Origin: a virus
Direction: 5' to 3' (one strand)
IMG/VR virus record: IMGVR_UViG_3300034103_002674
Location: 6,301-70,300 of that record
DNA length: 64,000 nt
Notes under the pieces: generated by a model
What the model was told of the DNA's origin: nothing
What the model saw: only the letters and a program-made list of their open reading frames with translations
Database searches by the model: none
Position numbers and translations under genes: made by a program
Part shown: piece by piece, positions 5,676-29,645 of the stretch
Layout: the number at the start of each line of letters is the position of its first letter
Numbering within the stretch: position 1 is the stretch's first letter

Positions 5676-6071
5676 TTAAGCGCCAGAATAGTCCAATTCG
5701 CCAATAAGCCTCACTGTAACAGTGCTTCGCCCATTGAATATGCTTTCTACTTGCGGAGGTTCAGCGTATTCCCAAAGAATATTAGTCGGCGCTTGCACAA
5801 CGCCACGAAGGCTATCGCTCATGCCAGAGAAAATTTCATTTGGCAATGCAAAACGCGTGTAGTTTCCACCCTGCGCATAGTAATGATCAAGAATGAGCTT
5901 TACATTGGCGTCAGTGATATTGGCAAACTCTAGTTCGATGGAATGACCAAATGAACGATTGCCGAAGATGCGTTTTACAGTAGCACCAGAAAGCCCCCGA
6001 TAGATTTTTGTTGGAAATTGTCCTGGCGAATAGGATCGTCCAGTTGGCCTAATAGAAGGAAAATTTGCCAT
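5676..6071 (-). CDS. Distal tail protein (lambda M-like)
   Basis: 131 aa immediately downstream of the tape measure gene, overlapping its stop codon. Confidence 0.6.
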   Translation of the reverse strand: MANFPSIRPTGRSYSPGQFPTKIYRGLSGATVKRIFGNRSFGHSIELEFANITDANVKLILDHYYAQGGNYTRFALPNEIFSGMSDSLRGVVQAPTNILWEYAEPPQVESIFNGRSTVTVRLIGELDYSGA

Positions 6072-9000
6072 TAGCGCATACCAATGCGAGAGCGAGTGGA
6101 GGGGCTTTGTTGTATCTTATCTAAGGTCATGCTCATGCCTCTGGCAGCGCCGCCTGCAATGGATGCACGGCGCGTTTCTGCCATGGCCATTTCTAATTGT
6201 TCGCGGCTTACATACTCTACGCCATTGATCTTAGTGGTCTCGAATTTCATGTTCAACGTGGGAGATTGAGGCATACCAGGGGCATTTCCTCCCATTAGAT
6301 CACGGGCAGATTTGCCGCCAAGCTGCACGGGAATGCTCTTGCCATCGGGAAGAGGGACAATGGCTTCGTTGTAACGTCCTTCGCCTACAAGGCCAAGAGT
6401 GGGACCGGAAACGACGCCGCCGTTGGCAAAGGCGCGGAAACCTCCGGGAGCAATGCCACCATTTGCAAAGCCTGCAAAATTCGGAGCCATGTTCCCAGCC
6501 GCATCTGTATATTGCCGCATAGGAGCAAGAGTGCCTTCTGTAATGCCAGTTTTTGACATGTCCGCTCCGCCCCCTCCAAGACCTGCAAACATTTTTGCAA
6601 TGCCAATGGCGATATAAGTGGCAATCATTTGTGAAGCAGCTTGAGAAAGCGCTTGGCCAACGCTTTCTAGGAATCCTGCAAACACTTCCTTGGCAGTAGC
6701 AGTGCCGCTGATCATGTTTGCCACGCCTTCTGTAAGGACATTAGCGAAAGCTCCGCTCACGCCCTGAATGGCGCCTTGCAGCCCTTCAAAAACGCTACGA
6801 AGCTGCATTGCGGCTGTTTCCACATTGGCAAGTTGCGTGGCGTAATCTTCGTCGCCATACTGCTCCATCGCTCTCTCAAAGACGTTTGCAGCACCGCCAG
6901 TGAAACCAGCTTGCAATCCAGTGCCAATTGTTTCCAATCCTCTTTGAGCAGAAGTTAAAGCAGTTTGTTTTTCCAAAAGCTTCACATTTTCAAGGCGCTG
7001 AGCGATAATTTGAGTGAGTAAATCAAGCTCTCCCTTCGCAATGTCTCTTTCATCTGCAGCCAAGTCTGCATATCTTTCTTTGACTGCCAGTTCAGCTTCT
7101 TGAGCAGAAGTAAGTTCAAGGCGACCATCTTTCAGAGCCTCCATTTGCAGGGCCTGCCTCTGAATTCCTAGCGTTTCGCGATCAATCTCATCAATGATGG
7201 GCTTAATAATCTTTTGGCGAGCTGCTCCAATTGCTAAATTGCGCTTGTCTTCCGCGATGGTTAAAGCATTGTTTTTGTTGATTTCTAAATCTTTCAACTT
7301 AAGAGCTTTGTCTGCAGCGCTTAAATTGTCTTTATTTGTCTTATCAACTTCCAAGCGATAACGCTCGGCTATTTCAAGCTTTGCGGTTTCCAGCTCTAGT
7401 TCTGCTAACGAAATATCGTATTGAGTTTGCGAAATAAGCTGACCTTGCAGTTGTTTATCAAGGCGTTGTTTTTCAATGTCAAACTGATCTTGAATAAATT
7501 GTAGTTGGCTTCTGCTATATTCATCAAGCTCTTTGCCTTTTTTCTTTTTCCCTTCCCCTTCACTAGGTGGAATTGCGCCAAGCACGGCAGGAGCTTGAGC
7601 CTGCTGTTCTTCGAAGCTGATCTGCTTTTGTCTAAAAGCAGCTTCAGACTGCAACCGCTGCGCCTGGGGCGCTAAAGCCATCGCCTCGCTTCTCTTCACA
7701 TAGATTGGTCCACCTGGGGCCTGTTGCGAACGAATGGGGCCAAGCTCTTGAAGCTGCTTGAGCTCTTTTTCACTTACGGGAACAAGTCGATCTCCACCTG
7801 GCTGCTGAGCACCGCCACGTCCCGCTATTGCCCCAATTGTCTGATAAGCCGATTGTGCTTGCTGCTCTGCTGCGCGAGCCTCAGTCTGAGACATGGAGCG
7901 AATGGCTTGTGCCGCACCCATCGCCTTTGCCTTGGTATCAGCCAGCGCCTGATTCATTGTCAGGAATTTTTCAATGAGCATACTGATGCCCACAACAACC
8001 AGGCCAACGCCAGTTGTCGCGAAGAAAGTGCGCAAGGTGATGCCAGCAGTGCGGATGGAAGCTGCAGTAGTCTGCGCTGTAGCGCCTGTTGCAGCCATCA
8101 TCCCCCTGAACGCTGATAAAGTCGAAGTACCAGAAGCAACTCTTGCATTGAAAATTAATAGTTGCAATGCATTAGCAGCCCACAATCCACGCATCACGCC
8201 AAGTGCAATATTGATGGGGAGAGCAATTGCATAAAGCTTTGCAAGATAACCAACAATTGGATTGCCAGCAATTTGCAAGAATACCTTGCCAACATCAAGA
8301 GCAACCCTCGCGAGTTCTCCTAGCTGAACAACAAAAGTAGAAACATTTTGTCCAATGCCATCAAACGCTGGGCGCAACCGCTCCAGCTCTTGCGCAATGG
8401 CAAATCCTCCTGCTGTTTTGGCTGCAGTGCCAGTAAAGAATGTATTAAGCCCATCAGTAAGCTGCTTAATTCCATCCGTCATCGGAACAACAACACTATT
8501 CAAGAATCCCACTGCAATGGGCTCAAAGCTCTCGTAGAAAAGAGCCATTGAGTTTTGCATGCGGTTCATTACGCCCTGGAAGGTTCGTGCCGCTCCTTCA
8601 GCGCCAGGGCCAAACTCTTTATTCATTACGATGGTTACATTTTTCAACAATGCGACCATCGCCTCGCCTTTATAAGCGCCCTCTTCTAGGGCGGCAGAGA
8701 AATCCTGGATAGCTTTAGGCCCTTCAAATCCTGCCGCTTCAGCAAACAATGCCATCGCGCCAGGCAGTACGTCACCTAACTGCCCCTTGAGTTCTTCGCT
8801 CATCACTTGTCCTTTGCTTGCCATCTGAGCAAAGGCATAGTTCACGCGATCAACTTTATCTGCGCTCATGCCAAACGTGGCCGCAGCTTTTGTAATGCCG
8901 GTGAATAAATCACGGATTTCATCGCCACTAAAACCAGCCGGAGCCATGGAAGCATATAGCTTGGTAAAACCATCACGGGCCGATTGCAAGGGCACGTTAT

Positions 9001-10645
9001 ATCTCTCCATAAGCCCAAGCAAGAGCTCATTAGAAGCTCGCGCTTCTTCTGCTGAAGGCGTCACTGCATTCAGCGTATTTCTAAAGCTTTGTAGCTGGCC
9101 AACTGCTGCACCTACTTGTGCGGGAAGATTTTGAATGAATGCAAGCAATTTATAAGCCTGTCCAAATAAGACCACTTGCTTAGCGGCAAAGCCAAATTCT
9201 TCACCAAGCTCTCTGATTGTTCCAGTGCCTGGAAGATTAACTCCTCCAACGGCCCGACCAAAATCACCAGCACCTGGAATCATGCCGCCAAAGCCACCAA
9301 ATCGTCCGCCGCCTCCACCGGCAGGAGGCTGCGCTCCACCACCTCCAAACATGCTGCTTTGAGGAGTGATGCGACCCAGCGGCGACGAAGGATACATCAT
9401 TCCGCTCATTGGGAATTGTTCCATTGAGCCTCTGCCAATCATCCCTGACATTGGGAATTGTCCCATTGAACCAAGTGGCGATGAAGGCCCAATGGGAAGC
9501 CCAAGTAGCCTGTTTGCTTTGTTCAAAGAATATTGTGCAGCTCGGCTCAAAGGAACGTTTTCAGCCCCAATCATTGGTGCTGTAATTGGAGGAAGCCCCT
9601 TAAACATTTGCTGGGTCATTCGCGAGGCGCTAGTCTGCCCCGCTGCTGGCAATAGCTTTTGCGTCTGAGCACTATTTGCCGCTTTGGCGACCACCTGCAT
9701 AATGCCTTTGCCAATTTGACCCACCCATGGATCAGAAATATTGACTGTTCTTGTGTAGTCAGAAAAATCTTTTGCAATTGCTTTCAGCAAAGGGTCAAAT
9801 GCTCTCGGGGCATTAAAGCCAGGAAGAGTAAAACCCTCAGGAAATTGTTGCTGAAATGCCGCTTGGCGATTAGCCGCACCAACCAAATCGGTTGTAATGC
9901 GACTTTCCGGCATCATGCGCAGCATACGTTGCGCAGCACGAGGATTGCTGGTTAAATTAGCCATGCGATCCAGCATCTCATTGAGATTGGGCATGGAACG
10001 CGCAGCACTTGTTTGAGCCTGCCCACGAATGGGGCGAAGCTTCATTTGTAAGTCTTTTAATCCTTCAAAGACTGCATCTGCAATACCATCTGCTTCTTCT
10101 ACTAGTTTTTTCGCCTGCGCCGCAAGATCTTTCCTTCCTCCAGTTGGCGTGCCTCCTAAATCGCGAATGATTTTTTCTAGACCAGCAATGTTGTATCCAC
10201 CTTTGCTCAATGATCCCTTTTCAAGACGCGATAAAACCGCTTGTCTTGCAATGCGCTCTTGCGCTTGTTGCACGCCAAAAGCACGCCCAATCAGTCCCTG
10301 TTCGCGCATGAAGCGCTCAAGGCCAGCGGCTCCTTGCGGTCCCTGGGAAAAAGCTCCTCCCGCAGCGGCTTTAACCTTGCCGCTTAATTCCGTAAGTTTA
10401 CGAGCAAGCGTGTCTGCTTTCGCAATTTCAGCAGATAAATTTGTTTCGATATTTAAGCGATAATTTCTCCGCCTAATATTTGCACCAAGAGCATTAAGCT
10501 CATTCTGTACACTACGTCTATCAAATCTAATTTGCACCGGCAATGGAGTGCCAGCAGCAGCCTGCCCAAGGCCCGCTAATTGCTGCCTGAAGAAGGCTAG
10601 GTCAAGACTTACCTTAAGCTTCAATTCGGCGTCTTGAGCTGCCAT
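6071..10645 (-). CDS. Tail tape measure protein
   Basis: 1524 aa, Ala/Gly/Gln-rich helical. Tape-measure motif 'AFAQMASKGQVMSEELKGQLGD' and C-terminal 'FANGG...GPTLGLVGEG..EAIVPL'. Confidence 0.95.
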   Translation of the reverse strand: MAAQDAELKLKVSLDLAFFRQQLAGLGQAAAGTPLPVQIRFDRRSVQNELNALGANIRRRNYRLNIETNLSAEIAKADTLARKLTELSGKVKAAAGGAFSQGPQGAAGLERFMREQGLIGRAFGVQQAQERIARQAVLSRLEKGSLSKGGYNIAGLEKIIRDLGGTPTGGRKDLAAQAKKLVEEADGIADAVFEGLKDLQMKLRPIRGQAQTSAARSMPNLNEMLDRMANLTSNPRAAQRMLRMMPESRITTDLVGAANRQAAFQQQFPEGFTLPGFNAPRAFDPLLKAIAKDFSDYTRTVNISDPWVGQIGKGIMQVVAKAANSAQTQKLLPAAGQTSASRMTQQMFKGLPPITAPMIGAENVPLSRAAQYSLNKANRLLGLPIGPSSPLGSMGQFPMSGMIGRGSMEQFPMSGMMYPSSPLGRITPQSSMFGGGGAQPPAGGGGGRFGGFGGMIPGAGDFGRAVGGVNLPGTGTIRELGEEFGFAAKQVVLFGQAYKLLAFIQNLPAQVGAAVGQLQSFRNTLNAVTPSAEEARASNELLLGLMERYNVPLQSARDGFTKLYASMAPAGFSGDEIRDLFTGITKAAATFGMSADKVDRVNYAFAQMASKGQVMSEELKGQLGDVLPGAMALFAEAAGFEGPKAIQDFSAALEEGAYKGEAMVALLKNVTIVMNKEFGPGAEGAARTFQGVMNRMQNSMALFYESFEPIAVGFLNSVVVPMTDGIKQLTDGLNTFFTGTAAKTAGGFAIAQELERLRPAFDGIGQNVSTFVVQLGELARVALDVGKVFLQIAGNPIVGYLAKLYAIALPINIALGVMRGLWAANALQLLIFNARVASGTSTLSAFRGMMAATGATAQTTAASIRTAGITLRTFFATTGVGLVVVGISMLIEKFLTMNQALADTKAKAMGAAQAIRSMSQTEARAAEQQAQSAYQTIGAIAGRGGAQQPGGDRLVPVSEKELKQLQELGPIRSQQAPGGPIYVKRSEAMALAPQAQRLQSEAAFRQKQISFEEQQAQAPAVLGAIPPSEGEGKKKKGKELDEYSRSQLQFIQDQFDIEKQRLDKQLQGQLISQTQYDISLAELELETAKLEIAERYRLEVDKTNKDNLSAADKALKLKDLEINKNNALTIAEDKRNLAIGAARQKIIKPIIDEIDRETLGIQRQALQMEALKDGRLELTSAQEAELAVKERYADLAADERDIAKGELDLLTQIIAQRLENVKLLEKQTALTSAQRGLETIGTGLQAGFTGGAANVFERAMEQYGDEDYATQLANVETAAMQLRSVFEGLQGAIQGVSGAFANVLTEGVANMISGTATAKEVFAGFLESVGQALSQAASQMIATYIAIGIAKMFAGLGGGGADMSKTGITEGTLAPMRQYTDAAGNMAPNFAGFANGGIAPGGFRAFANGGVVSGPTLGLVGEGRYNEAIVPLPDGKSIPVQLGGKSARDLMGGNAPGMPQSPTLNMKFETTKINGVEYVSREQLEMAMAETRRASIAGGAARGMSMTLDKIQQSPSTRSRIGMR

Positions 10646-11119: not shown

Positions 11120-11656
11120 CTACTGAGGAGAATTCCTCTTCGTTGCTTTTTTTGCGGCCACTGCCTCCTGCGTCTCAGCATTTTGCTCTTCAGCAATAAA
11201 CTCAACCACTTTAGTAATGGCTTTGCGCGGAAGATTTTTTGTATCTTCCATGTCCCAGTCAGACAAATCTTGCCATTCACCATCAATCATTCCCTGACCA
11301 CGAGAGCGCATGAAGGCAGTCACCATGCGGGCATTGGTGCTCTCTACCGACGAGCCGCTAGTAATCATGCTTAATGTTTCTTCCGTATATTCCGAAAGAA
11401 GTTCTGCTTCAGTGATAGAACCACCACCACCTTGCAATAGGCCAAAAGCTTCATCCAGAGGAATCTCTTTGTCTTTTGCAATGCGCTTAGCAAGTTGTAC
11501 AGCGCGAATAGTAGCCTGACTTTGAAGCTTGCTAATCTCTTCTTGCTCAATGGCTTCGGCAACTAGCCAGCCGCCATATTTCTTCAGACGGATACCTGGC
11601 AGAAGCTCGCAATACTCTTCAGCCTTGGTCTGCAGAAGGAAGCTGTATTTGCTCAT
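11120..11656 (-). CDS. Tail assembly chaperone G
   Basis: 178 aa ending ...AAKKATKRNSPQ with a GCA-AAA-AAA-GCA slippery site. Confidence 0.75.
   Translation of the reverse strand: MSKYSFLLQTKAEEYCELLPGIRLKKYGGWLVAEAIEQEEISKLQSQATIRAVQLAKRIAKDKEIPLDEAFGLLQGGGGSITEAELLSEYTEETLSMITSGSSVESTNARMVTAFMRSRGQGMIDGEWQDLSDWDMEDTKNLPRKAITKVVEFIAEEQNAETQEAVAAKKATKRNSPQ
11147..11153 (-). other. Programmed -1 ribosomal frameshift site (tail chaperone G/GT)
   Basis: A_AAA_AAA heptamer. The -1 frame reads AAA AAA AGC AAC GAA GAG GAA TTC TCC TCA GTA GCG GAA ATG, in frame with 10686..11114. Confidence 0.8.
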
Positions 11657-14566: not shown

Positions 14567-15475
14567 TCAGGCGGAAGCCTGAACGTAGATAACGCTCTTG
14601 GGATAGTACAGAGCCACGCCACCCACGCGAGCATGAGCGGGAACAATGAACTCAAGACCGCGCTGTTGAGGCGGGAAGAGTTCCAGGGGCTGAGGAATGT
14701 GCAGTTGCACCTTCTCGGGATCGCGCTTGTACACAACCATGCGGTTGGTGTTCAGCACGCTGTTGCCAGCATCCAGTTGGTTGATGGGTTCAACGTTGCG
14801 GATGTAAGGGTTGGTGCGCAGGAAGTATTCCAGCACGGTCACATCCGAAGAGTCGGAGTTGCGAGTAGTGGAAACTTTGTTGTAGTCCTCATAAGCCATG
14901 AGGATGGTGTCGGGCTGCTCCTTCATCTTGGAGGCGTTGATAATGGCGCTCACGCCATAGTTCAGCAGCTCCAGCATTTCCTGAGCAGTGGTGCCGCTAT
15001 CGGTGAACCACTTATCAGCAGCAACAACGTCCACGGTGGAGTTGTTAAAGAAACCAGACAGGCCAACAGTGCTCTCGCCGAACAGAGCCACTTCTTCAAC
15101 CTTCTCCTCATAGGCGCGACGCACAGCAGCAGCACGACGCTGCTCCAGAGCGATGTTGGCCATTTGAGCGGCACGCAGTTCCTGCACGGTGTAACCGAAG
15201 GAACCACCGAAGGAGCGGATGTTGATGCTCTTCTCAACTTGGCTGATATCGGCACGGGGCAGATCGTCAGCAGCATCAGCGATCAGCTTGAACTCACCAG
15301 TGGAGTCCATGATGCGATAGGTGAAGGTCTGAGCGCCAGGGCCAGCTTCACTAGTGACAGGCAGAATGGTCGGATACTTAATATCCGCATACTGCACTTC
15401 AAACACTTGGGGGCGGATGTACTCAAGCTGACGCTCAAGGAACAGACCCGCGTCATCCATACGGAATTCAGACAT
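14567..15475 (-). CDS. Major capsid protein (HK97 fold, DUF2184-like)
   Basis: 'FLERQLEYI...YTVQELRAA...HIPQPL...GGVALYYP' pattern; strong codon bias. Confidence 0.9.
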   Translation of the reverse strand: MSEFRMDDAGLFLERQLEYIRPQVFEVQYADIKYPTILPVTSEAGPGAQTFTYRIMDSTGEFKLIADAADDLPRADISQVEKSINIRSFGGSFGYTVQELRAAQMANIALEQRRAAAVRRAYEEKVEEVALFGESTVGLSGFFNNSTVDVVAADKWFTDSGTTAQEMLELLNYGVSAIINASKMKEQPDTILMAYEDYNKVSTTRNSDSSDVTVLEYFLRTNPYIRNVEPINQLDAGNSVLNTNRMVVYKRDPEKVQLHIPQPLELFPPQQRGLEFIVPAHARVGGVALYYPKSVIYVQASA

Positions 15476-16053: not shown

Positions 16054-17253
16054 TTACTTAGCCTCCTTAGAAATGGAAAGGGGCTTCTTCCAGGCATTCT
16101 GCAGCATATCCATATAAGCGGACGGCGCAGAAACAGGAGAAGCAATGGAAGCTACGGCTTTACGCAGCTCATCAGTGGTGGCAGAATCAGAACGACCTTC
16201 AGAGAGAGTGTCGAACATTGCCTGTACGTAGTCGTCGCTTTTCTCAGAAAGATCAAGCTCATCACCACGCACTGCTTTGATGGAATCAACCATCACTTCA
16301 CGGGCAGTTTTGCCAGTGAATTCATAAGCGCTATCCAGAACGGGCTTGGCTTTCTCAATGAGAGCCACGCGCTCTTCAACCATCGAATCAAGGTTGATTT
16401 CTTGGGCAGCAGTCAGTTCAGTCTTCAGTTCTTCGACCTGCTCAGCCAGAGCATCGGCCCGCCCTTCGGCAGAATCCATTTTGCCCTTCATTTCTTTTTC
16501 CATGGCGTCCATTTCAGACTTCATGGAATCAGCGGCTGCTTGCAGTTCGTCGTACTTCTTCTTCATGTCCTCGAAGGACATTTTGGCGTCTTCGCGTTCT
16601 TTAGTGATCGCAAGAGCAACGCTCTCCGTCACTTCAAACTCGGCGCCATCAAACACGACTTTTGCAGTCATTAGATGGTCTCCTCCGTTAGAGATCAAAG
16701 ATGGGTCAGCAGCATCTTGACGATCAAGATGAAGCTTCACTTGCGGGCCAGCGCGGCCCCGACGAACAATAGCGATGTGATTGCCGATGATTTCCTTTTG
16801 GACGCCATCGTAATGCTCGCCATTTTCTGTAACGCCAGGCGTGGGATCGTAATTCACCCTGTAGCCAGCGCTTACCTCACGAGCATCCCCCTTCATGATG
16901 CGCTTAATGGTGTCTTCGTCAGTGATTGTCATCACTGCTTTAACAAAACCATTGTCGTACACCACTTCGGTGCCACTAAAGCCCACTTGGTAGTCTTTGG
17001 TGTTCTCAGAATCGAGAAGTACGGGGGGATGTTCCGAAGTGATTGCCTTGCCCGCAAATGAAGCAAGACTATCGGGAGACGCCACTTCTATTTCGGGACG
17101 ATATTCACGACGAATGGAGCCATCACTATCTGTGTAGTGTTGGATGCCAGTGCGTGCGATAGAAGCCCATGCCCGAAGATAACCTTCTGGCGTGAGTTCG
17201 TATTTCTCAATAGGAGAGAAATCGTATCGACAAGAAATGGTGCTCATATTCAT
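16054..17253 (-). CDS. Prohead protease-scaffold fusion (DUF2213-like)
   Basis: 'TPEGYL...ARTGIQHY...ITSEHP...EVSAGY...NHIAIVRRGRAG' followed by a coiled-coil scaffold. Confidence 0.88.
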   Translation of the reverse strand: MNMSTISCRYDFSPIEKYELTPEGYLRAWASIARTGIQHYTDSDGSIRREYRPEIEVASPDSLASFAGKAITSEHPPVLLDSENTKDYQVGFSGTEVVYDNGFVKAVMTITDEDTIKRIMKGDAREVSAGYRVNYDPTPGVTENGEHYDGVQKEIIGNHIAIVRRGRAGPQVKLHLDRQDAADPSLISNGGDHLMTAKVVFDGAEFEVTESVALAITKEREDAKMSFEDMKKKYDELQAAADSMKSEMDAMEKEMKGKMDSAEGRADALAEQVEELKTELTAAQEINLDSMVEERVALIEKAKPVLDSAYEFTGKTAREVMVDSIKAVRGDELDLSEKSDDYVQAMFDTLSEGRSDSATTDELRKAVASIASPVSAPSAYMDMLQNAWKKPLSISKEAK

Positions 17254-17628: not shown

Positions 17629-17940
17629 TCAGTCCTCGTCGTCGTCTTCGCCACGAATGCTGGCAAGCTGATTTTCAATGTCTTCCATAATGTAAGACTT
17701 TGCCATCGCCTCAATTTCAAACGTGAGGAACTTTGTCGGCTCAAAATGCTCGTCTGGTTTTTCATAAACGCTCATCACATAGATGTGCGTTTCATCTAGT
17801 CGGCCATTCTTAAAACATTGCTTTTCGACAAGCTCCCACCGCGAAGTATTGCGATGCTCATTAGCCGACAAAATAGACAGAGCCTTCAAAAGACCAATAC
17901 CTTCATCCTCTTCTTCAATGACACGCACATATTCGCTCAT
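17629..17940 (-). CDS. Hypothetical acidic protein
   Basis: 103-aa ORF overlapping the upstream stop (ATGA). Confidence 0.65.
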   Translation of the reverse strand: MSEYVRVIEEEDEGIGLLKALSILSANEHRNTSRWELVEKQCFKNGRLDETHIYVMSVYEKPDEHFEPTKFLTFEIEAMAKSYIMEDIENQLASIRGEDDDED

Positions 17941-18248
17941 TGGTCTTTTTCGCGACTCTCTACCATCTTAATGATGCGATTTGCCCACGCCCTACCAGCA
18001 TCTCCTCCCCACAAAAGCCACGCAATGTAGCCTGCATCGTTTTCACCTCCACTTTTATTCTTTTCGTGACGAGAGAAGAACGCTGACATGCGCTTAATAG
18101 TGGCGAAGCTTACGGCCCCGCCGCCAGCTAAATCAGAAGCCCTGGCCACTCCACTGCCAATGCCTTGCTTGCCTGCCTCTTGCGTCGTCAATCCTCCTTT
18201 CCCATGCTTCTTGCGCAGCTCCAGGCCGCGACGAGCCGCAGATCGCAC
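17937..18248 (-). CDS. Basic head-associated domain, probably made as a -1 frameshift extension of 18284..18556
   Basis: 'AARRGLELRKK...TIKRMSAFFSRH...IAWLLWGGDAG'. No ATG start; the frame is open back to the A_AAA_AAG site. Confidence 0.7.
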   Translation of the reverse strand: MRSAARRGLELRKKHGKGGLTTQEAGKQGIGSGVARASDLAGGGAVSFATIKRMSAFFSRHEKNKSGGENDAGYIAWLLWGGDAGRAWANRIIKMVESREKDQ

Positions 18249-18283
18249 AGCAGCAGGAGGGGCAAAGCTTTCAGCGTCACCCC

Positions 18284-18556
18284 TTAGCGCTTTTTTCCGC
18301 AGGAGCCATCCTCCATTTCTTCCATCCCTTCCTCTTCTTCCTCTTCCTCTTCTTCCTCTTCGCCGATGAGAGTCATAAAATAATTATCCCAATAAGCATC
18401 GCTCTTGCCTTGACGGCTCATGCCGGCTTCCGACAGAGCAATTGCAATCGCCTGCTTACGATTCTTGACGGGCTTCTTGTCGCTGCCCTTCAAGGTGCCG
18501 GCTTTGAATTCGCGCATAACTTTAGCAACTTTTGCTTGCTTTTCTTTCGTAGTCAT
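18284..18556 (-). CDS. Small basic protein (DUF6496-like) with a poly-Glu tract
   Basis: 'KVAKVMREFKAGTL...NRKQAIAIALSEAG', then E11, ending GGA AAA AAG CGC TAA. Confidence 0.75.
   Translation of the reverse strand: MTTKEKQAKVAKVMREFKAGTLKGSDKKPVKNRKQAIAIALSEAGMSRQGKSDAYWDNYFMTLIGEEEEEEEEEEEGMEEMEDGSCGKKR
18290..18296 (-). other. Candidate programmed -1 frameshift site with downstream hairpin
   Basis: In-frame A_AAA_AAG, a 5-nt spacer, then a stem-loop AGGGGU...GCCCCU. Confidence 0.7.
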
Positions 18557-18575: not shown

Positions 18576-19286
18576 TTAATTAATAAATCCTATCGGAGCC
18601 GTGGCAATTTTTACGCCTGGAAGAATCCTATCCCTACATAAAACCATTCCAGTAATTAAGCGTTCAGCAATAAAAGCAATTGCACGCTTGTCATATCCTT
18701 CAATGGAAAGAAAATGCTCTTTGTTTTCGCGCCAAATTGGAGCAAGTCCGACAAATAATGTTGTCATGAAGCGCAAATAAGATTGCCTTGGCCCGCGTGC
18801 CATATTGCAGCCAACAAAGGAAGACTGCGCCCAGATCTTATCAATCTCCTCGCGCGTAAAAATCCACTTGCCTTCGTCTGCTAATTTGCGCGTAATTGCT
18901 GGTGCATCAAACGCAGAATGACCGCCGTAGAACTGTTGTTCAAGCGTACAGGAGAATTGAGCCGGTTCTGGCACATACAAAGTTTCCGGGCAATACCATT
19001 CATCTTCTGGCTCTAACCAATTACGCCGATACTGTGCATTGCCAATGTTGAGCTCTTTTGCATTAAGAATCATCCAATGCACGCACGAAAGCTCTCCCCA
19101 TCGATCATTTAATGGAGACAGCATGGCATTTTCATCGTCAAAAGCATAGCCTTCAGCACGAAGACTTTCGCGCTCTTCTTGGCTCAGCGCATGACTTCCT
19201 CCCATAATGGGAACAATGCGAGATTTGGCCGTGTAACGCACCTTCTCCCCTGGGATGCACACCGCATAAATGGTGCTGTCAGCCAT
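18576..19286 (-). CDS. DUF4422 / GT111-like glycosyltransferase
   Basis: 'LNDRWGELSCVHW...IGNAQYRR...CNM...RAIAFIAERL' matches the DUF4422 pattern (N..xEL..yW...G..hYRR...R..gfl.ERL). Confidence 0.7.
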   Translation of the reverse strand: MADSTIYAVCIPGEKVRYTAKSRIVPIMGGSHALSQEERESLRAEGYAFDDENAMLSPLNDRWGELSCVHWMILNAKELNIGNAQYRRNWLEPEDEWYCPETLYVPEPAQFSCTLEQQFYGGHSAFDAPAITRKLADEGKWIFTREEIDKIWAQSSFVGCNMARGPRQSYLRFMTTLFVGLAPIWRENKEHFLSIEGYDKRAIAFIAERLITGMVLCRDRILPGVKIATAPIGFIN

Positions 19287-20001
19287 CTCCATACACCTTA
19301 CGGGCTTGCCACAGCTCATTGTAATTGTTGACGCCCTTAGCGCCAAGTCCAGTCAAGTCGCCACCGCCAGCAGGCTTACTCCACGCCATGATCGTGCCAT
19401 CGGGGAGCACAAAGGCCCTGTTCTTCTGGCTGTGCGTAGGCGTTAACTCGAGGTAGTCGCCATAAACGAAATCGGCTTGGCTTCCATTCGCTGCCAAAGC
19501 TTTCCCAAGCAAAGTTGGGCCAGTGGGGCACAATGGAGTGATGCCGTAATATTGCTCGATGCAATTCGCAACAATCATTTCAATGGCAGTTTGCAAAGCA
19601 GGATTACTTGGCTGGGAATAAAGCACCGTCGTGGCGCACGCCCAGCTTGTATAGCTAAAGCGCTGAATATCACGAAAAGCCAAGAACTTAATTCGCGGCC
19701 CAAGATCCACCGCATTAAAAGCCCTCGCGCCAATATCAAAATACCAGCCACCAAGCTTATTCAATAGACAGAAACGCCCAAGATCCGCCTTGTAAGAAAA
19801 AGGCCTCAGCGTATCGTACGCCCATAGCACTTCTTCTTCATAGTTATCAGCAATGAAAGCTCGAAGTGAATCGTTGTTATAAATGACATGCTTTGCTTCA
19901 GGGAAGCAAGCATCAATGGTGCCCGTAGCATGCTCGAGGAACGGACTAAGCTTTTCCGCTGGATCAGTGGAAAGAAAGATTTGTGAAATTTGCATGATCA
20001 A
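19279..20001 (-). CDS. Glycosyltransferase family 32-like (sugar-binding DxD region)
   Basis: 'YKADLGRFCLLNKLGGWYFDI...PTGPTLL'. Confidence 0.8.
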   Translation of the reverse strand: MIMQISQIFLSTDPAEKLSPFLEHATGTIDACFPEAKHVIYNNDSLRAFIADNYEEEVLWAYDTLRPFSYKADLGRFCLLNKLGGWYFDIGARAFNAVDLGPRIKFLAFRDIQRFSYTSWACATTVLYSQPSNPALQTAIEMIVANCIEQYYGITPLCPTGPTLLGKALAANGSQADFVYGDYLELTPTHSQKNRAFVLPDGTIMAWSKPAGGGDLTGLGAKGVNNYNELWQARKVYGDG

Positions 20002-21221
20002 ACAATCTTCGCGGGAGTGCCAAAGCCTTTAAACTCAGGAGCGGCTGGCTTTGCATTAAGAGTGCGTTCTACCACGTCAAGAAGCTGCTGTTGAATATAA
20101 GGCCAGGTAAAAGGCTCTTCGTGCAAACGGTTATAGCACCATTGCCCATCTTTCTTCAACGCATCGCGATTTTCATAATAATATGACAAGATTTCCGCTG
20201 CGCTTTCAGGGTCAGGAAGCAAACGTTCAAGACCATAGTTGCGATCAGTCTCAGAAGCGTTGCATTGAATACGAGGCATCTCATCAAAGATCTCAGCAAG
20301 GCTTGTATGGTCAGGCACAACTTGCGCCACGCCAACGGAGCCATGCTCGCTATTGACTAAGCCCCAGCCCTCTCCAATGCAAGTGTTGAGCCCAATATCA
20401 GCAGCGTTATACACTTTGTTTAGCTGTTCAATAGAGAGGCAGTTGTCCACCGAGAAATGAGGACTAGTAAGAATCAGCTTGCTTGTCGCATCAAAACCTT
20501 CATCGCGGGCAATGCGCTTAAATAATGGAATGACTTGCCACCCAAGATCTTTGCTACCCATATTGAGCCACAGACGAGCATCATCCTTATCTTTTGCAAA
20601 CTTGATAAATGCCTTAAGTGTTAAATCGATGCGTTTTCGCGGTTGGTTCCTATTGCCATTAAATACGATGAATACATCCTCTGGTACGCCCAGCTCCTTG
20701 CGACACTGCTGTTTATCAAGAGGAAAAAATTTGGTAAAGTCGGTGCCGTGCCCGATAATATCAATCGGCCCGTCCCATCCCATCAAGCGCAGTTCTTTTT
20801 CAGCAAACTGCGTATAAGTGGCAAGACCATCCCACCCTTCCATTTGCCGCTTCAGTTCCGGAAACAATCCATAGGAGTCAATGGGAGTATAGACAAACCA
20901 TTTGAAGCCAAGTTTTTCCCTAAGTGAATTGGCTTGCTCCCACAAGTTGATAGCAATCCAAATATCATTTGTCACCCAAACAAGATCTGGTTTTTCTGCT
21001 TGAATGATGCTGGCAATGCGATGCGACCCAAACGGATCGGATCCATGCAGCATGGCTGGATACACCTTGTATTTCTTCGCCTCGGGATGGGGGTCGCCAT
21101 GGTAGTTTGTGCTCATTACCACCACTTCATGCTTTTGAGCAAGAGCAGGCAGTAGATATTGGGCCACTCTCCCAAATCCCGTTTCTACAAATGCATCGCC
21201 GCAATAGAGAATTTTTGCCAT
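19998..21221 (-). CDS. Glycosyltransferase family 4 (GT-B)
   Basis: 'TGFGRV...IIGHGTD...NRNQPRKRID...YNAADIG...GEGWGL...E'. Confidence 0.9.
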   Translation of the reverse strand: MAKILYCGDAFVETGFGRVAQYLLPALAQKHEVVVMSTNYHGDPHPEAKKYKVYPAMLHGSDPFGSHRIASIIQAEKPDLVWVTNDIWIAINLWEQANSLREKLGFKWFVYTPIDSYGLFPELKRQMEGWDGLATYTQFAEKELRLMGWDGPIDIIGHGTDFTKFFPLDKQQCRKELGVPEDVFIVFNGNRNQPRKRIDLTLKAFIKFAKDKDDARLWLNMGSKDLGWQVIPLFKRIARDEGFDATSKLILTSPHFSVDNCLSIEQLNKVYNAADIGLNTCIGEGWGLVNSEHGSVGVAQVVPDHTSLAEIFDEMPRIQCNASETDRNYGLERLLPDPESAAEILSYYYENRDALKKDGQWCYNRLHEEPFTWPYIQQQLLDVVERTLNAKPAAPEFKGFGTPAKIV

Positions 21222-21283
21222 GGTTCTCTCGAAATCTTCGTCATCATAAGCAGCTTCTATACTTACGGCACAAGGAGAAAACT

Positions 21284-21973
21284 ATGCTGTCGCCATCTTC
21301 TGTACGCTTTTGCATCAGCACTTGCAACAAGTTTGCCGCTCATACGCTTAAGACCATTATTCCCTCTCTCACTCGCGCTGGAATTGGCACCAATGAAATC
21401 TTAATCATCAATGGAGGCCAAGAAAACTGGCAAATTGACCATTACGGCGACGTACCAATGATTTGCACACCGCAAAACTCCTTTGAATACACGCCCCTCA
21501 TTGAAATTGTCGAACACAATCTCATGAGCCCCTTTTGGTTCCTCCTTCATGACACTTGCATTGCCGGGCCAGCATTCAAAAGCCTCGTTTACGATCCGCC
21601 AGAAGCTTTTGAGAAGGTGGCGATGAAGCACACGCCATCAATGAGTATCGGTCTTTACAGCATGGACTATCTCATGCGTCATAAAGATCGTCTCGCAGCG
21701 ATTAAAAACATGGACAGCTCGCCGCAGGCATTGCAAGCATGGAAACAATGGGGAGTGCCTAACGAAGACTACATGCTTTGGAAGCTGAGAGATTCACCAA
21801 CGGGCCTTTATCACCCTGATAAACATGGCATCGATGAATGGAATTATCAAGGGCATGCGGATGTCTATGGAACCGGCATGCCTCGCCGCATAGAATACTT
21901 TCCACAGTTGGACCTGTTCAAAGCCAAATCAAACTGGCAGGGAGTGCAGCCAACGCTTTGCATTGACATTTAA
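21284..21973 (+). CDS. Putative GT-A-like glycosyltransferase
   Basis: 'FCIST...IPSL...ILIINGG...NSFEY...FLLHDT...NED'; AAGGAG Shine-Dalgarno before ATG at 21284. Confidence 0.55.
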   Translation: MLSPSSVRFCISTCNKFAAHTLKTIIPSLTRAGIGTNEILIINGGQENWQIDHYGDVPMICTPQNSFEYTPLIEIVEHNLMSPFWFLLHDTCIAGPAFKSLVYDPPEAFEKVAMKHTPSMSIGLYSMDYLMRHKDRLAAIKNMDSSPQALQAWKQWGVPNEDYMLWKLRDSPTGLYHPDKHGIDEWNYQGHADVYGTGMPRRIEYFPQLDLFKAKSNWQGVQPTLCIDI

Positions 21974-22950
21974 TGACGCTCAAAATTGCGATTGTCGGTG
22001 GCGGCTGGACTGGATGCCATTTAGCTTCACGCTTAATGAGCGAAGCTGATGTGACATTGTTTGAGCGTAATGAAATACTTATTTCTGAAGCCTCATTGAT
22101 CAATCAAAATCGTTTGCACTATGGCTATCACTACGCCAGGAATCATGCCACGCGCATGTTATGCAAAAATACGTTTGAGCGGTTCATGCTTGACTATGGT
22201 CGTCTAACAGAGAACATTCAAAACAATTTCTATGCGGTGTCAGAAGACGAAAGCTTGCTAGATGCAGAAACCATTCGACTTATTTTCAAGGACTGGCCAC
22301 ACACGGAAGCGGATGCAAGCCTACTGAATCACTCATCATTGCTTTTGCACACCATCGAAAAATATATATCACCAACTGCCACTGGTAAATATTTTGAAGA
22401 GCTATTGCTTCCCATTGTCAGAAGAGAAGAAATCAACGAAAGCTCTATTGCGCTGCTAAAGCAAGACTATGATTTTGTTTTTGATTGCACCAACAATTCT
22501 CTTTTGCCTGCTATCGAGGGAGACTATTTTGAGGCAGTAGCAATGTTTGTCTATCGCCCAATTAAAATGCCGCCATTTGGCGCCCTCACTTTTATTGACG
22601 GAGAATTGTTTTCCATCTATCCATATGGCTCTTCAATGTTTTCACTGAGCCATGTCAAGCTTGGCATTATTGAGCAAAAGGAAATGAATTGCTTTGGCAA
22701 TAACTATGGTTCAATGCATGACCGTCGATATTCAATGGAGGAGCATGTAATGCGCTATTGGCCCGAGTTTCATGATTATTTTAAATACGTATTTCCAGTG
22801 GTATCAATTAAAGCAAAAAGCAAAAATGCCAGCGCCCAGCGCACTCCTATCTTTAGGCAACAAGATAATCTGTTGTCTTTTTATACCGGCAAAATTCAAG
22901 GGATCTACGCCATCGAAGCAATGGCTAAAGAAGCGCTGTCTCAAGCGTAA
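21973..22950 (+). CDS. FAD-dependent oxidoreductase (DAO-like, polysaccharide-locus type)
   Basis: 'IAIVGGGWTG' Rossmann motif; 'ASLINQNRLHYGYHY'; 'GKI' near the C-terminus. Confidence 0.85.
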   Translation: MTLKIAIVGGGWTGCHLASRLMSEADVTLFERNEILISEASLINQNRLHYGYHYARNHATRMLCKNTFERFMLDYGRLTENIQNNFYAVSEDESLLDAETIRLIFKDWPHTEADASLLNHSSLLLHTIEKYISPTATGKYFEELLLPIVRREEINESSIALLKQDYDFVFDCTNNSLLPAIEGDYFEAVAMFVYRPIKMPPFGALTFIDGELFSIYPYGSSMFSLSHVKLGIIEQKEMNCFGNNYGSMHDRRYSMEEHVMRYWPEFHDYFKYVFPVVSIKAKSKNASAQRTPIFRQQDNLLSFYTGKIQGIYAIEAMAKEALSQA

Positions 22951-23681
22951 ATGCTGCGGAACAGTGGATAGTCGCGCATGTGCTTTTTAGCTTGAAACAA
23001 CTCGCGGACAATTGCACCTTCGTAGTTGATTCCATCAAGCATTCGTTTTATTTGCTTGTGTTCGTATTTATTAAGCAGCGGACCATTGTCAGTATCGCTG
23101 ATATGCACATGAGCAATGTAAGGCCAGTAATGATTCAATAACTTCTTAGGGCTATCGCCCTGAAGCCAGGCATTATTAGTATCGAGCATTGTCTTGACAT
23201 TTTTAAGATTGCAGAAATCAATGTGATTAACAATTTCGTTCACAGTAAAGAAATAAGATCCTCCGTAGCATTTTGCTACAGGCTCGATACAGAGGATGGC
23301 TCCGTTTGCATCCAATACTGCATCCATGCGCTTCAATACGTTCATCAAGCATGATGGACTTCCTTTACGTAGATTCGGGCTTCCCAAGACAAAGCGCTTG
23401 ATTCCCATGAGAGAACCAAGTCCGATCACTTTTAGCAAATGCTCCGACACTGCTGTTGTATCTTCAAAGCTTTGCACATTGCTTTGAAAAAACAATGCTT
23501 GAGCTGAATATGCCCATAAGCCATAGCTCTCGCGGTATTCTTTCGCAATATCGGCGCAGTCTTTGTCTTGAGCGAAGATGCGTGCAGGCACGATCTCCAG
23601 CACGTTAAATGCTCCCGCGTTAGCACTTAAGATTTGCTCTTCTTCCTCATCGGTCCAGCCGATGGCACTAATTCCAAGCAT
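22941..23681 (-). CDS. Sugar phosphate isomerase/epimerase (xylose-isomerase-like TIM barrel)
   Basis: 'GISAIGW...EIVP...VLGSP..R...CIEP...MLDT.N...HVHISD'. Confidence 0.8.
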   Translation of the reverse strand: MLGISAIGWTDEEEEQILSANAGAFNVLEIVPARIFAQDKDCADIAKEYRESYGLWAYSAQALFFQSNVQSFEDTTAVSEHLLKVIGLGSLMGIKRFVLGSPNLRKGSPSCLMNVLKRMDAVLDANGAILCIEPVAKCYGGSYFFTVNEIVNHIDFCNLKNVKTMLDTNNAWLQGDSPKKLLNHYWPYIAHVHISDTDNGPLLNKYEHKQIKRMLDGINYEGAIVRELFQAKKHMRDYPLFRSIYA

Positions 23682-24391: not shown

Positions 24392-25072
24392 TCAAACTGC
24401 CACAGTTGGCGCTTGCTGTCGGAAGTATTTTACGCTGCATCGGCAGTTCGCACGGCATGCGCAGCGCTGCCCTGGAAGCGGTACGCTACCAATGGGAACC
24501 ATGCCACGAGCAGCATAATCCAGGCAATCTTGGCAATGCTTCGCCTGGGAATCAAGGATGCGCCGCATCAATGAATATCCTTGTTTTTCTTGCCGAATAC
24601 TAGCTCCTTCCCAAAAACTGCCGCGTATAGCTTGAGCGTATAGGCCGATGCGAGCAAGAGACTGGGCAACAGAAACGCGACCGCCCAGAAGGTCATTAGC
24701 AAAATTCTGTAAGTAAGCATATTCCACACGGAGACGCTGCCCGATGCGCCCCCAGTCGGTAGCCACCATTGTTTCGCGCCCGCCATTGCCGATGATTGCC
24801 GCTTGTACGTGAACAAGCTTAAGTGCTTCCCTCACGCTTCCTTGCCATTGATCCAGCGTAATATCACCAGCGCTAAGCATACGTGTAAAACGCCGTAGCT
24901 CAGCGCCAAGCTTGTTAATTCGACCATCCACCAGTGCTTCCACTGCACGAGCGCTGAGAAAGCGTCCGTTAGTGCCGCGATACCGACCACTGATAGGGTC
25001 GTAACGCCAGGATGATTCGTCAAAACGAACAATGGCTTCAGAGAATTGAGAAAGATCATTGAGGCTGGACAT
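24392..25072 (-). CDS. Head morphogenesis protein (Mu gpF / SPP1 gp7-like)
   Basis: C-terminal 'HCQDC...PLPG..C.C.ANCRC'; follows the portal gene. Confidence 0.75.
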   Translation of the reverse strand: MSSLNDLSQFSEAIVRFDESSWRYDPISGRYRGTNGRFLSARAVEALVDGRINKLGAELRRFTRMLSAGDITLDQWQGSVREALKLVHVQAAIIGNGGRETMVATDWGRIGQRLRVEYAYLQNFANDLLGGRVSVAQSLARIGLYAQAIRGSFWEGASIRQEKQGYSLMRRILDSQAKHCQDCLDYAARGMVPIGSVPLPGQRCACRANCRCSVKYFRQQAPTVAV

Positions 25073-27149
25073 CCTCTGCCTCCAGGATATCCTTGAAGCG
25101 CTCAGGCGCTTCTTCTTTCCATTGATTCAATGCAGCAGAAATGTCTTCTTCATCAATGAGAGAAGCTTCGTCAATATCAGCAAGAATTAGCCCACTTGTT
25201 TTTAGCGGCTCAATTGCGTCCGTTTTGCTGCTAACCATTTTTGCTGGTCCTTTCCGCTCCGGATCGGGATCTGCTGCACGCTTGCGACGCACAATTGTCT
25301 GGCGCTCTTCCTTGCTCATAGCCTGAGCTTTTGCCTGAGGAAGGCACTTGGGCTTACCTTCTTTTTCTTCGCGAGCACCGCAAGGTCCAAGAATTTCACC
25401 ATTAGCGCCAATCCTCACCCATTTCTCTTTGAACCATTTGTCAAGATCGTCGGCATGCAGCTCGCCTTCATCGCTTTTAAAGGCGCCGCTCAAAGAACCG
25501 TGCTTTTTCTTGTACATTTGCTTGTACTGCTGGACAACATATCCACTTGCATAGGCAGAAGGCCATACTTTAAACTTAGCCTTGGCAGCACTTACTGCAC
25601 GAGAATGAAGCTCTTTGTCAGCAAACTCCACGTCACCGCGAATTTCTTCTAAATCGCGAGGCAAGAAAAGCCCTGCAGCGGAGTCCTCGACTTCCCTGCT
25701 CCCATCCATTGGAAGCGTGCCATTTTCTTCATTCATTGGATCACGACCACCAGGAGGCACTGCAAAGCCACCCCGATCAGGGGTGGCTCCACCCATTTCT
25801 TGAGTGGGCATTTCATTGGCCCGTTCCACTGAGGGATCGAGCGTAAGCTCCATGCTCCACTCAGAACCGCCGTAACGGGCGTCTGCCACTTCCTTAGGTG
25901 TAAGGACACCCAGTTGGATGTAGCGACCGTCTACAGCCGCTACGCGAGCCCTTACGTCAGCCATTTCGCGCTCGTTAAGCTCGAACAATGGGTTGAACGC
26001 AATGCGCCATGAATCGGGCATTTCTCCCTTCGTTGGACCTTCCTTACTCAGCATGATGTATTCCATCAGCTTTTTCATTGGGCGTTTGAAATGAACACTT
26101 TGATAGTCAGCAAGTGTCTTAGCAAAATCACGCTCTTCACTCCGACCAGTGGAACCAAGTCCGCTTGGACTTTCACCAAATAAAACAGTATGAGGAATTT
26201 TGCTGGCGCCAATAATATCCACGCGAAGCTTCTCTAAAATTTCTCCAATGCCACCAAAATTACGACTAATAAATTCAAGCTCTTCTTTTTCAGCGTCAAT
26301 CGCGTAGCCGCGATAAATGCTCTTGCTCATATCATTCACTTGCAAGCGATCACGAATGGAGCTTTCTTTGCCAGCAGCAAGCATCGCTGCGAGCCCCCTC
26401 ACCTTGTGAACAAAAATATCAAATTCAGTAAGAAGCGTTGCAGCAGAATTAAGGCCAGTCCAATAATGACGGAAGCTGTCATAAACAGTTTGCAAGCTGC
26501 TCATGCCCCAGCCATAATTGCGCTGCCTCACGCGATAAGGCAGCCAATCGCCATCAAAACGCAAAATCCTGTCCTTGTGAATATAGGTGAGTGTAGGTTC
26601 GTTAATTAAATCGCCAGAAATAATTTGATAGTAAGTTGCCTTGGAATAGTCATAGAGATTTTCTTCGTTGATAACTGGAGCAATTTGCCAACGATCAAGG
26701 CATTCAATCTCTTCAATGCGGCGAATATTGCGTTTATCAACAGGCATATAAGCAGGGCGTCCATCGTCAATAAACAAAAGTAGGCATGCCCCTCCATAAA
26801 GACGTGAATTCTTTGCGGCGAGATTTAAGTGCTCAAGAATATACAAATCTTCAATTGCCTGCTCAATCCCTTGCACTTCCTCGGCCCTTACACCATCGCC
26901 ACCAAACAACACCTTGAAACCCTTACGCGTGGCTTGATCTGCATAGATATCTACAATACGACGAGGCAGCCATTCGCCATAAAGATTTTCAAGCTCTTCC
27001 TGGGCAAGGAAGACAGTGGCGGTGGTCTTGGTGTACTGGGCCTTGTCACGGCCAGTTCCCATGCCAATCAGCACGTTTTGAAGACCATCCGCGCGAATAC
27101 CGCCCGCACTGGCATGGCCTAAATCAATTGCTTCGCCTTCCATAACCAA
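25056..27149 (-). CDS. Portal protein (DUF1073-like) with C-terminal extension
   Basis: 'RIVDIYADQATRKG...RLYGGA...IHKDRIL...IPHTVLFGESPSG...FNPL'. The extension contains 'WPSAYASGYVVQQYK...LDKWFKEKW'. Confidence 0.88.
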   Translation of the reverse strand: MVMEGEAIDLGHASAGGIRADGLQNVLIGMGTGRDKAQYTKTTATVFLAQEELENLYGEWLPRRIVDIYADQATRKGFKVLFGGDGVRAEEVQGIEQAIEDLYILEHLNLAAKNSRLYGGACLLLFIDDGRPAYMPVDKRNIRRIEEIECLDRWQIAPVINEENLYDYSKATYYQIISGDLINEPTLTYIHKDRILRFDGDWLPYRVRQRNYGWGMSSLQTVYDSFRHYWTGLNSAATLLTEFDIFVHKVRGLAAMLAAGKESSIRDRLQVNDMSKSIYRGYAIDAEKEELEFISRNFGGIGEILEKLRVDIIGASKIPHTVLFGESPSGLGSTGRSEERDFAKTLADYQSVHFKRPMKKLMEYIMLSKEGPTKGEMPDSWRIAFNPLFELNEREMADVRARVAAVDGRYIQLGVLTPKEVADARYGGSEWSMELTLDPSVERANEMPTQEMGGATPDRGGFAVPPGGRDPMNEENGTLPMDGSREVEDSAAGLFLPRDLEEIRGDVEFADKELHSRAVSAAKAKFKVWPSAYASGYVVQQYKQMYKKKHGSLSGAFKSDEGELHADDLDKWFKEKWVRIGANGEILGPCGAREEKEGKPKCLPQAKAQAMSKEERQTIVRRKRAADPDPERKGPAKMVSSKTDAIEPLKTSGLILADIDEASLIDEEDISAALNQWKEEAPERFKDILEAEDVQPQ

Positions 27150-27217: not shown

Positions 27218-27730
27218 ATGGACTTCTTGGCTCCGCCATTGACTTTTGCCTTTAGCGAAGACCAGCGGCAACGCGCTCGCGCCGAAGCGCTTCGCAGGCA
27301 AGCCCTTAATGAGCATCAATGCAGAAAAAGTCGGAACAATGGTGGGGAAAAAGCGGAAAAGGGAGAACTAGCGCTTCGCTATCACCTTCTAGGCGCCGCA
27401 GGCGAAATGGCAGTAGCCGTCATGCTTGGCATGGAAGATAAGCTCTATCAAGAAACTGAAGCAAAGCGCGGTTCCGCAGATCTTCCTCCCAACATCGATA
27501 TCAAAACTCGCTCCAAGCATTACTACGATTTAATCGTTCAACTAGATGAAAGTCCAGATAAGATATTGGTGCTCGTCACAATTGAAAATCGCATTACGCT
27601 CATCCATGGTTGGATAAAAGCAGTCGATGCGATGAAGGAACAATGGAAGAAAGATCCAGCAGGTGGTCGCCCTGCCTATTTCGTTCCCAAGACTGAGCTA
27701 CTTTCTTTGTCTCTATTGAAATACAAGTGA
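27218..27730 (+). CDS. Hypothetical protein, possible PD-(D/E)xK-like nuclease
   Basis: 'GAAGEMAVA...ADL...IDIKTR'; coupled to the terminase gene by a GTGA overlap. Confidence 0.55.
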   Translation: MDFLAPPLTFAFSEDQRQRARAEALRRQALNEHQCRKSRNNGGEKAEKGELALRYHLLGAAGEMAVAVMLGMEDKLYQETEAKRGSADLPPNIDIKTRSKHYYDLIVQLDESPDKILVLVTIENRITLIHGWIKAVDAMKEQWKKDPAGGRPAYFVPKTELLSLSLLKYK

Positions 27731-29570: not shown

Positions 29571-29645
29571 GCCCCTATAGCCCAATAGGCAGCAGGCAGG
29601 TCGCTTAAAACGACCACAGTGCAGGTTCGAATCCTGCTAGGGGCA
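29571..29645 (+). tRNA. trnL: tRNA-Leu(TAA), intronless, short variable loop
   Basis: Acceptor GCCCCTA/TAGGGGC, anticodon arm GGTCG-CTTAAAA-CGACC, T arm GCAGG-TTCGAAT-CCTGC, discriminator A; CCA not encoded. Confidence 0.9.

Follow-up and report, generated by a model that had tools for sequence, protein, structure and literature searches.

In Escherichia coli dnaX (tau/gamma), a 3' stem-loop lies a few nucleotides (nt) downstream of the slippery heptamer, and an enhancer resembling a Shine-Dalgarno (SD) element lies upstream of it. In the orfA-orfB pairs of the IS3 family (IS911/IS150 type), a short zero-frame product ends just past an A_AAA_AAG-type heptamer, a 3' structure follows, and a trans-frame fusion carries a second domain. 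The heptamer A_AAA_AAG, whose shiftiness and use in E. coli dnaX are described in the portion of PMC5009743 considered here, is also present at the site that is the subject of this analysis, on the minus strand of a 64,000-nt stretch of viral DNA (positions 6,301 to 70,300 of IMG/VR record IMGVR_UViG_3300034103_002674; the whole stretch is referred to as the window). The window is a piece of a tailed-phage genome with its genes of interest on the minus strand, and comparison with relatives indicates that the site is very probably a genuine programmed -1 ribosomal frameshift of the dnaX/IS3 type, located in a head-module gene of an S-CBS4-like cyanosiphovirus.

The outcome of slippage at the two sites sharing A_AAA_AAG would be different. 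In dnaX the shifted frame stops almost at once, giving the shorter product, whereas in the window it is the zero frame that stops, one codon later, and the shifted frame would add a 117-residue domain; the SD-like enhancer of dnaX is weakly indicated at the window site. The layout of the gene resembles that generally known for IS3 orfA-orfB. The window proteins are, however, unrelated to those of IS3 elements and have no transposase domains, the gene lies in a phage head module, and variants fused in frame coexist with the split form.

Among tailed phages, the lambda G/GT tail-assembly chaperone uses a conserved -1 frameshift that yields a short and an extended product (PMC5009743, in the sections covered). 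The window site is likewise a candidate -1 frameshift in a structural module, but in another gene and another module, with the portal/glycosyltransferase genes on one side of it and the DUF2213 prohead protease gene on the other, and it does not lie directly upstream of the tape measure gene, as tail-chaperone G/GT sites do. In T3/T7 gene 10, Lactobacillus phage A2 and Listeria phages A118/A500/PSA, frameshifting extends the capsid protein C-terminally in a fraction of the molecules (PMC5009743, same sections); those cases concern the major capsid protein, often with immunoglobulin-like domains, whereas the window gene encodes a small DUF6496 protein and a helical module. The C-terminal domain encoded in the shifted frame (the C-domain) also occurs in long phage proteins with partner domains of the polyvalent proteins, which have been proposed to be packaged in the capsid (Iyer et al. 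2017, PMC5512222, in the part of that paper considered). The window protein differs from these in consisting of two small domains only, with no enzymatic domain, and the same part of that paper makes no mention of frameshifting.

The known phage cases, as given in the portions of PMC5009743 and the PRFect paper covered here, are the tail chaperone G/GT and the major capsid protein extensions. Within the parts of the phage frameshifting literature covered, including the PRFect paper and the Atkins review, the DUF6496/C-domain gene family is not mentioned; searches found no literature on DUF6496 and, by titles and abstracts and with the S-CBS4 genome paper outside the coverage, none on this gene in S-CBS4, including in connection with frameshifting. 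The mechanism itself is a known one, tandem slippage into the -1 frame as classically described in bacteria; what is new is the gene family, for which the support is unusually strong, and which adds a conserved phage frameshift outside the tail-chaperone and major-capsid genes.

Sequence anatomy of the locus

The elements of the locus in the window are the following.

18284..18556, minus strand: zero-frame open reading frame (ORF) 1, 90 residues, ATG start, DUF6496 and a poly-Glu acidic tail, ending ...GSCGKKR-stop
18290..18296, minus strand: slippery heptamer A_AAA_AAG, in the zero-frame register GG-A AAA AAG (X_XXY_YYZ)
18284..18286, minus strand: zero-frame stop TAA, one codon past the heptamer
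18258..18284, minus strand: putative frameshift-stimulating hairpin (RNA folding), 5-nt spacer from the heptamer
17937..18296, minus strand: -1 frame reading (P0002), 119 residues counted from the heptamer KK, with a helical C-terminal domain opening with F-x-P-P..V
18246..18248, minus strand: GTG taken by annotators and ORF finders as the start of a second ORF; here an internal Val codon

The minus-strand text at the junction reads ...GGC TCC TGC GGA AAA AAG CGC TAA GGGGTGACGCTGAAAGCTTTGCCCCTCC..., and ORF1 closes with GGA AAA AAG CGC TAA, as a preliminary description of the sequence had stated. The -1 frame is open from 18296 to 17937 (translation KKALRGDAESFAPPAAVR...) and, in agreement with the same description, runs into the listed ORF 17937..18248, which starts with GTG and has no ATG. 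A stem-loop had been placed 5 nt after the heptamer; RNA folding gives a hairpin there, at 18284..18258, consisting of an 8-bp lower stem, a 1x1 internal loop, a 3-bp upper stem and a GAA loop (AGGGGUGA-C-GCU-GAA-AGC-U-UUGCCCCU). The hairpin and the -1-frame Arg codon both begin with the last A of the stop TAA. The predicted trans-frame product has 206 residues (89 zero-frame residues and 117 more); the preliminary description had the shorter protein right at 90 residues and put the fusion at roughly 205.

In the proposed mechanism, ribosomes translating ORF1, with its DUF6496 and poly-Glu tail, would arrive at GG-A AAA AAG and be slowed by the hairpin 5 nt downstream, perhaps also by the zero-frame stop one codon later. 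In a fraction of these ribosomes both Lys-tRNAs would slip back by one base and reading would resume in the -1 frame, such that two products, the 90-residue zero-frame and the 206-residue trans-frame protein, would be made. The long product would share its two-domain architecture with proteins that, in many relatives, come from a single ORF without interruption.

The heptamer sequence AAAAAAG is rarer in the window than expected (14 occurrences vs 28.1 +/- 4.7, with at least 14 in 100 of 100 shuffles). In a search of 18100..18450 against Rfam the best match, to an unrelated family, scored 16.5 bits vs a gathering score of 50, and no frameshift-element family was among the matches up to E = 10. 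The single-sequence statistics of the window are modest, and the case rests on comparative data.

Conservation of the heptamer, stop codon and shifted frame

Three scans of one viral-contig collection, together with S-CBS4 and the window, provided 237 loci, which reduced to 150 unique gene sequences. The C-domain is in the -1 frame relative to DUF6496 in 112 of these (the split forms), was scored as in frame in 33, and is in the +1 frame in none; the remaining 5 are cut by a contig end, with the N-terminal part missing. Two of the 33 in-frame sequences are special, L160 being a noisy contig of truly split type and L064 a version of a split-type sequence with a run of seven A's (A7); setting these aside leaves a fused set of 31 unique gene sequences.

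Among named phages in the collection, only Synechococcus phage S-CBS4 is a close relative (83.7% DNA identity in the capsid gene). Its gp018/gp019 junction reads AGA AAA AAG GGC TAA and is followed by the same hairpin as in the window; the lower stem departs from that of the window in two pairs (U-G to C-G, G-U to G-C), in which the bases still pair. The linker upstream of the junction has, unlike the hairpin, diverged between the two phages, with insertions and deletions.

A canonical X_XXA_AAG heptamer is present at the fixed site, in the same frame, in all 112 split forms: A_AAA_AAG in 86, G_GGA_AAG in 22 and C_CCA_AAG in 4 (a script's first-match tally, corrected by inspection of the rows). 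The zero-frame stop lies one codon past the heptamer in 100 (96, plus 4 rows for which the script had put an overlapping AAAGGGN first), immediately follows the heptamer in 10, and is 15 nt and 42 nt downstream of it in the other 2. The type of stop varies, TGA being used in 66, TAA in 37 and TAG in 9, and a T>C change at 18285 in two of four compared sequencing runs converts the window's TAA to TGA while being synonymous in the -1 frame. The preliminary description's combination of A_AAA_AAG with a 3' hairpin, which it had proposed to follow through homologues, is thus borne out: heptamer, stop and hairpin keep a fixed register in S-CBS4 and the 112 relatives, and the hairpin covaries.

The C-domain of the split forms is under strong purifying selection, the ratio of nonsynonymous to synonymous substitution rates (dN/dS) being ~0.06 among them vs 1.5 for the same DNA in another frame. 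Comparison shows, in sum, that the heptamer, the stop, the hairpin and the -1 ORF are conserved and under selection; the slip itself and its efficiency are inferred.

The range of heptamers bears on whether the shift might occur at the level of transcription, with RNA polymerase adding one A on the A run and normal translation then giving the fusion. The window has an A6 run, a few relatives, e.g. L003 and L072, have A7 or A8, and an A7 DNA variant encodes the same protein, all of which would suit such slippage. Productive transcriptional slippage usually needs longer runs. Furthermore, 26 of the 112 heptamers hold only three A's, which tandem tRNA slippage would explain and polymerase slippage would not; every heptamer is in the X_XXY_YYZ frame, and the 3' hairpin, with its 5-nt spacing, is under selection. 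Polymerase slippage is accordingly assigned a very low probability.

A second alternative is that there are simply two separate genes, the second ORF being translated from the GTG at 18248 or by termination-reinitiation after the ORF1 stop, with the heptamer and hairpin incidental. GTG is present at this position in the window and in S-CBS4, which is annotated in this way, as well as in other split relatives (28 of the 112 unique sequences in all), and a 103-residue form is on record in protein collections (P0109; an ESM Atlas record). By contrast, GTG is missing in 84 of the 112, no ATG, GTG or TTG lies between the Arg codon and the annotated GTG position in 110, and 75 have no start codon further upstream in the open -1 frame. 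In alignment A4 the GTG codes for V100, a Val that is nearly invariant, as are F94, P96 and P97 upstream of it; starting at the GTG would cut into the conserved domain, which begins further upstream, at F-x-P-P..V, in distant homologues and in the in-frame fused forms alike. Heptamer, stop and hairpin are, in addition, conserved and covarying, and are lost exactly where the gene is fused. Independent initiation at 18248, raised in the preliminary description as a competing possibility, is therefore not general, and the two-gene explanation as a whole has a small probability, little more than an outside chance.

The interpretation as a -1 frameshift has a direct consequence for annotation, in that S-CBS4 and the protein collections list two 'hypothetical proteins' at such loci, one with an artificial GTG start, whereas the long product would be a two-domain protein.

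Hairpin conservation and covariation

Hairpin statistics were obtained for 90 unique split junctions, with a tree built from flanking sequence. Standard pairs occupy 86.3% of the pair cells, vs 51-62% in slid registers, with the 3' partner moved by 1-3 columns, and all 8 lower-stem pairs are intact in 75 of the 90 junctions. The mean minimum free energy (MFE) of the 27-nt element in split forms is -13.9 kcal/mol vs -6.6 kcal/mol after synonymous resampling.

The single freely variable pair of the lower stem is 21-37, which joins a Gly third codon position to a Ser/Ala first codon position; its states in the 90 junctions are AU 39, CG 32, UG 9, GU 3, GC 1 and other 6. In independent contrasts, A in column 21 went with U in column 37 in the same way in 8.3 of 10 pairs, and in the opposite way in 0.0 (median p 0.008); C went with G in the same way in 6.8 of 12 pairs and in the opposite way in 0.2 (median p 0.016). 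Covariation within the predicted hairpin is thus supported under phylogenetic control.

Relatives with an in-frame fusion

The fused genes provide a natural control. The heptamer is absent from the 26 unique junctions of truly fused genes, where either CGN or AGR can serve as the Arg codon. Pairing in these junctions is 59.8%, no better than in the slid registers, the mean MFE is -4.9 kcal/mol vs -5.4 kcal/mol for resampled sequences, and all 8 pairs are present in 1 of the 26. The hairpin is selected in the split forms, and there is no such selection in the fused forms.

The existence of in-frame relatives raises the possibility that a truly continuous ORF has been split at a homopolymer, either by a mistake in sequencing or assembly or by a mutation that inactivated the gene recently. 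In addition to the 31 unique fused sequences there is L064 with its A7, and two protein clusters, P0010 and P0102, have in-frame junctions. However, the split form is common to 112 unique sequences from many samples; 26 of these use G_GGA_AAG or C_CCA_AAG and have no A6 run at all; and the A6 run of the window, which the preliminary description had marked for a check against homopolymer error, shows no indel in contigs from four sequencing runs. (In the same comparison, 18332-18355, within the poly-Glu repeat, has no contig cover, a gap that carries no meaning.) The split-form C-domain, with its low dN/dS, is under purifying selection, and selection on the hairpin is confined to split forms. 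An error or a pseudogene is in our view exceedingly improbable, to the point of being negligible.

The rare in-frame sequences with a split-type junction merit separate mention. P0010 and P0102, among 120 listed clusters, have an in-frame heptamer-type junction, that of P0010 being identical to the junction predicted for the window, and L064 (locus ~1498..1548) has, with its A7, a junction of this type as a single ORF. These three may be genuine alleles with a constitutive fusion, or they may reflect errors of assembly in a homopolymer.

Mapping fusion and split on the flank-based tree requires a minimum of 5 changes if well-supported branches alone are counted, and 10 under parsimony; the heptamer states call for 26 changes in all. 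It may be that repeated conversion or recombination of a linker cassette has caused the switching between fused and split forms. The fused and split solutions are both viable, which suggests that the frameshift determines how much of the long form is made relative to the short DUF6496/acidic form.

Observations weighing against a frameshift

Several observations count against a programmed frameshift at this site, or limit the support for it. The 46-nt stretch with the hairpin folds at -17.5 kcal/mol with z = -2.1, 7 of 200 shuffles folding equally well, a result that is modest alone, and the fold of the 131-nt context has z = +0.31. The upper 3-bp helix is not conserved, being unpaired in 35-46 of the 90 junctions; the covarying pair is mismatched in 6 of the 90; and one relative, L156, has a broken stem with 5 of 8 pairs left. 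The Arg-Gly and Ser/Ala-Pro codons, and the stop that overlaps the hairpin, put a further constraint on a large part of its sequence (AGG GGN ... NCC CCU). When the association of the split form with an intact stem is controlled for the tree, 5 independent pairs are left (p 0.125), an underpowered comparison.

Retention of the GTG in a quarter of the split relatives (28/112), the window included, makes some independent start there possible. The upstream SD-like element, scored as an anti-SD duplex of -6 kcal/mol or lower at 7-8 nt, is found in 42-46% of split vs 23-26% of fused forms, a weak enrichment in a region rich in Glu/Gly codons. In the RNA run X24, a fraction of 0.04 of the sampled words was present.

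Protein domains and possible function

Residues 4-44 of ORF1 match DUF6496 (Pfam PF20106) with 38 bits vs a cutoff of 24 (E = 2.2e-9), and the in-frame homologues carry PF20106 as well. For the -1 product no Pfam family was found, even at E up to 10; it does match phrog_2859 (E = 2.6e-18, at positions 164-268 of 740). Homologues of the C-domain of near its length number 1188, many of them single-ORF proteins of 180-207 residues with an N-terminal PF20106, and longer homologues number 1352. The domains found in the longer proteins include portal (PF04860, PF06381), XkdF-type protease, ChaB, InPase, LPD1, ddrB-ParB, 2H phosphoesterase/Acb1-like, SNF2-type helicase and methyltransferase; a viral structure library gave the same partners, i.e. 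prohead protease, portal and ParB proteins.

An AlphaFold2 model of the in-frame homologue P0010 (mean predicted local distance difference test score 79.5) has two helical domains joined by a disordered acidic linker. The fold offers no clue to function: the model had no match in the Protein Data Bank at E <= 0.001 with Foldseek, and its best Z in a wide VIA-align search was 4.3, which is non-specific for helical bundles. The functional reading draws on domain fusions only. The ESM Atlas returned unnamed viral clusters only.

The proteins are predicted to be capsid-internal components, possibly delivered with the DNA, because the gene lies between the portal/accessory genes and the prohead protease gene and because the C-domain recurs in portal, XkdF-type prohead-protease and polyvalent proteins. 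A role as an internal head or DNA-condensing protein, as guessed in the preliminary description, is compatible with the fusion partners of the C-domain, though putative. More generally, the locus points to a widespread helical domain, as yet without a name, that occurs across portal, prohead-protease and polyvalent proteins.

More speculatively, and with doubt prevailing, the locus might serve as a valve, adjustable in evolution, for the dosage of a module that lies inside the capsid and is possibly injected; lineages would toggle between the fusion and the gated form and swap three heptamers of different shiftiness, tuning the number of C-terminal-module copies vs the short form per capsid. 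If that were true, the family would represent a naturally occurring set of alleles that differ in frameshift efficiency, carried by an abundant group of phages from aquatic habitats. With its three heptamers, covarying hairpin and signal-free fused relatives, it would in any case be a convenient system for studying the effects of heptamer and hairpin on frameshift efficiency in cyanobacteria.

Gene neighbourhood and other features of the window

The sequencing runs that contain the stretch are lake and other freshwater metagenomes. The genes around the frameshift locus are the following.

27727..29097, plus strand: large terminase
25056..27149, minus strand: portal protein (Phage_portal_3) with a C-terminal DUF5872 at residues 511-609
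17940..17629, minus strand: ORF of 103 residues next to the frameshift gene, with no Pfam or PHROG match
17253..16054, minus strand: DUF2213 prohead protease
Between the prohead protease and the major capsid protein in the listed order: cement protein
15475..14567, minus strand: major capsid protein, a separate gene
10645..6071, minus strand: tape measure gene

The listed order is terminase, portal, accessory genes, the two frameshift ORFs, the 103-residue ORF, protease, cement and capsid, with the tape measure gene further on. The DUF5872 of the portal protein is a further small add-on module, such as relatives have fused to their portals; in a BLASTP comparison, the portal protein including DUF5872 has no similarity to the frameshift-encoded C-domain (best E = 1.0).

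Between the portal and frameshift genes, 18576..23681 (both strands) is a block of sugar-related accessory genes within the head module, encoding a DUF4422 protein, DXD-motif and GT4-type glycosyltransferases, an FAD/NAD-binding oxidoreductase and a xylose-isomerase-like TIM-barrel protein. In S-CBS4, too, glycosyltransferases are encoded at this position. On the other side of the locus, the -1 frame ORF and the 103-residue ORF share the bases ATGA (17937..17940, minus strand), where the stop of the former overlaps the ATG start of the latter, and translation of the 103-residue ORF may be coupled to frameshifted ribosomes through the overlap.

ARAGORN found no phage-encoded tRNA-Lys in the window; it reported a tRNA-Leu (anticodon taa) at 31274..31342 (minus strand) and, at 29571..29645 (plus strand), an unusual tRNA-like gene whose anticodon was called with two bases.

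A further slippery sequence is present in the tail region. At 11147..11153 (minus strand), GC-A AAA AAA lies 8 codons ahead of the TAG of a 178-residue ORF (11656..11120). Neither this ORF nor the 142-residue ORF at 11114..10686 matches a PHROG family. The -1 frame at this site leads straight into the 142-residue ORF, whose immediate downstream neighbour is the tape measure gene. The arrangement is like that of the lambda G/GT tail chaperone, and the site is the first frameshift that is implied by the title of the preliminary description, which numbered the head-module site as the second.

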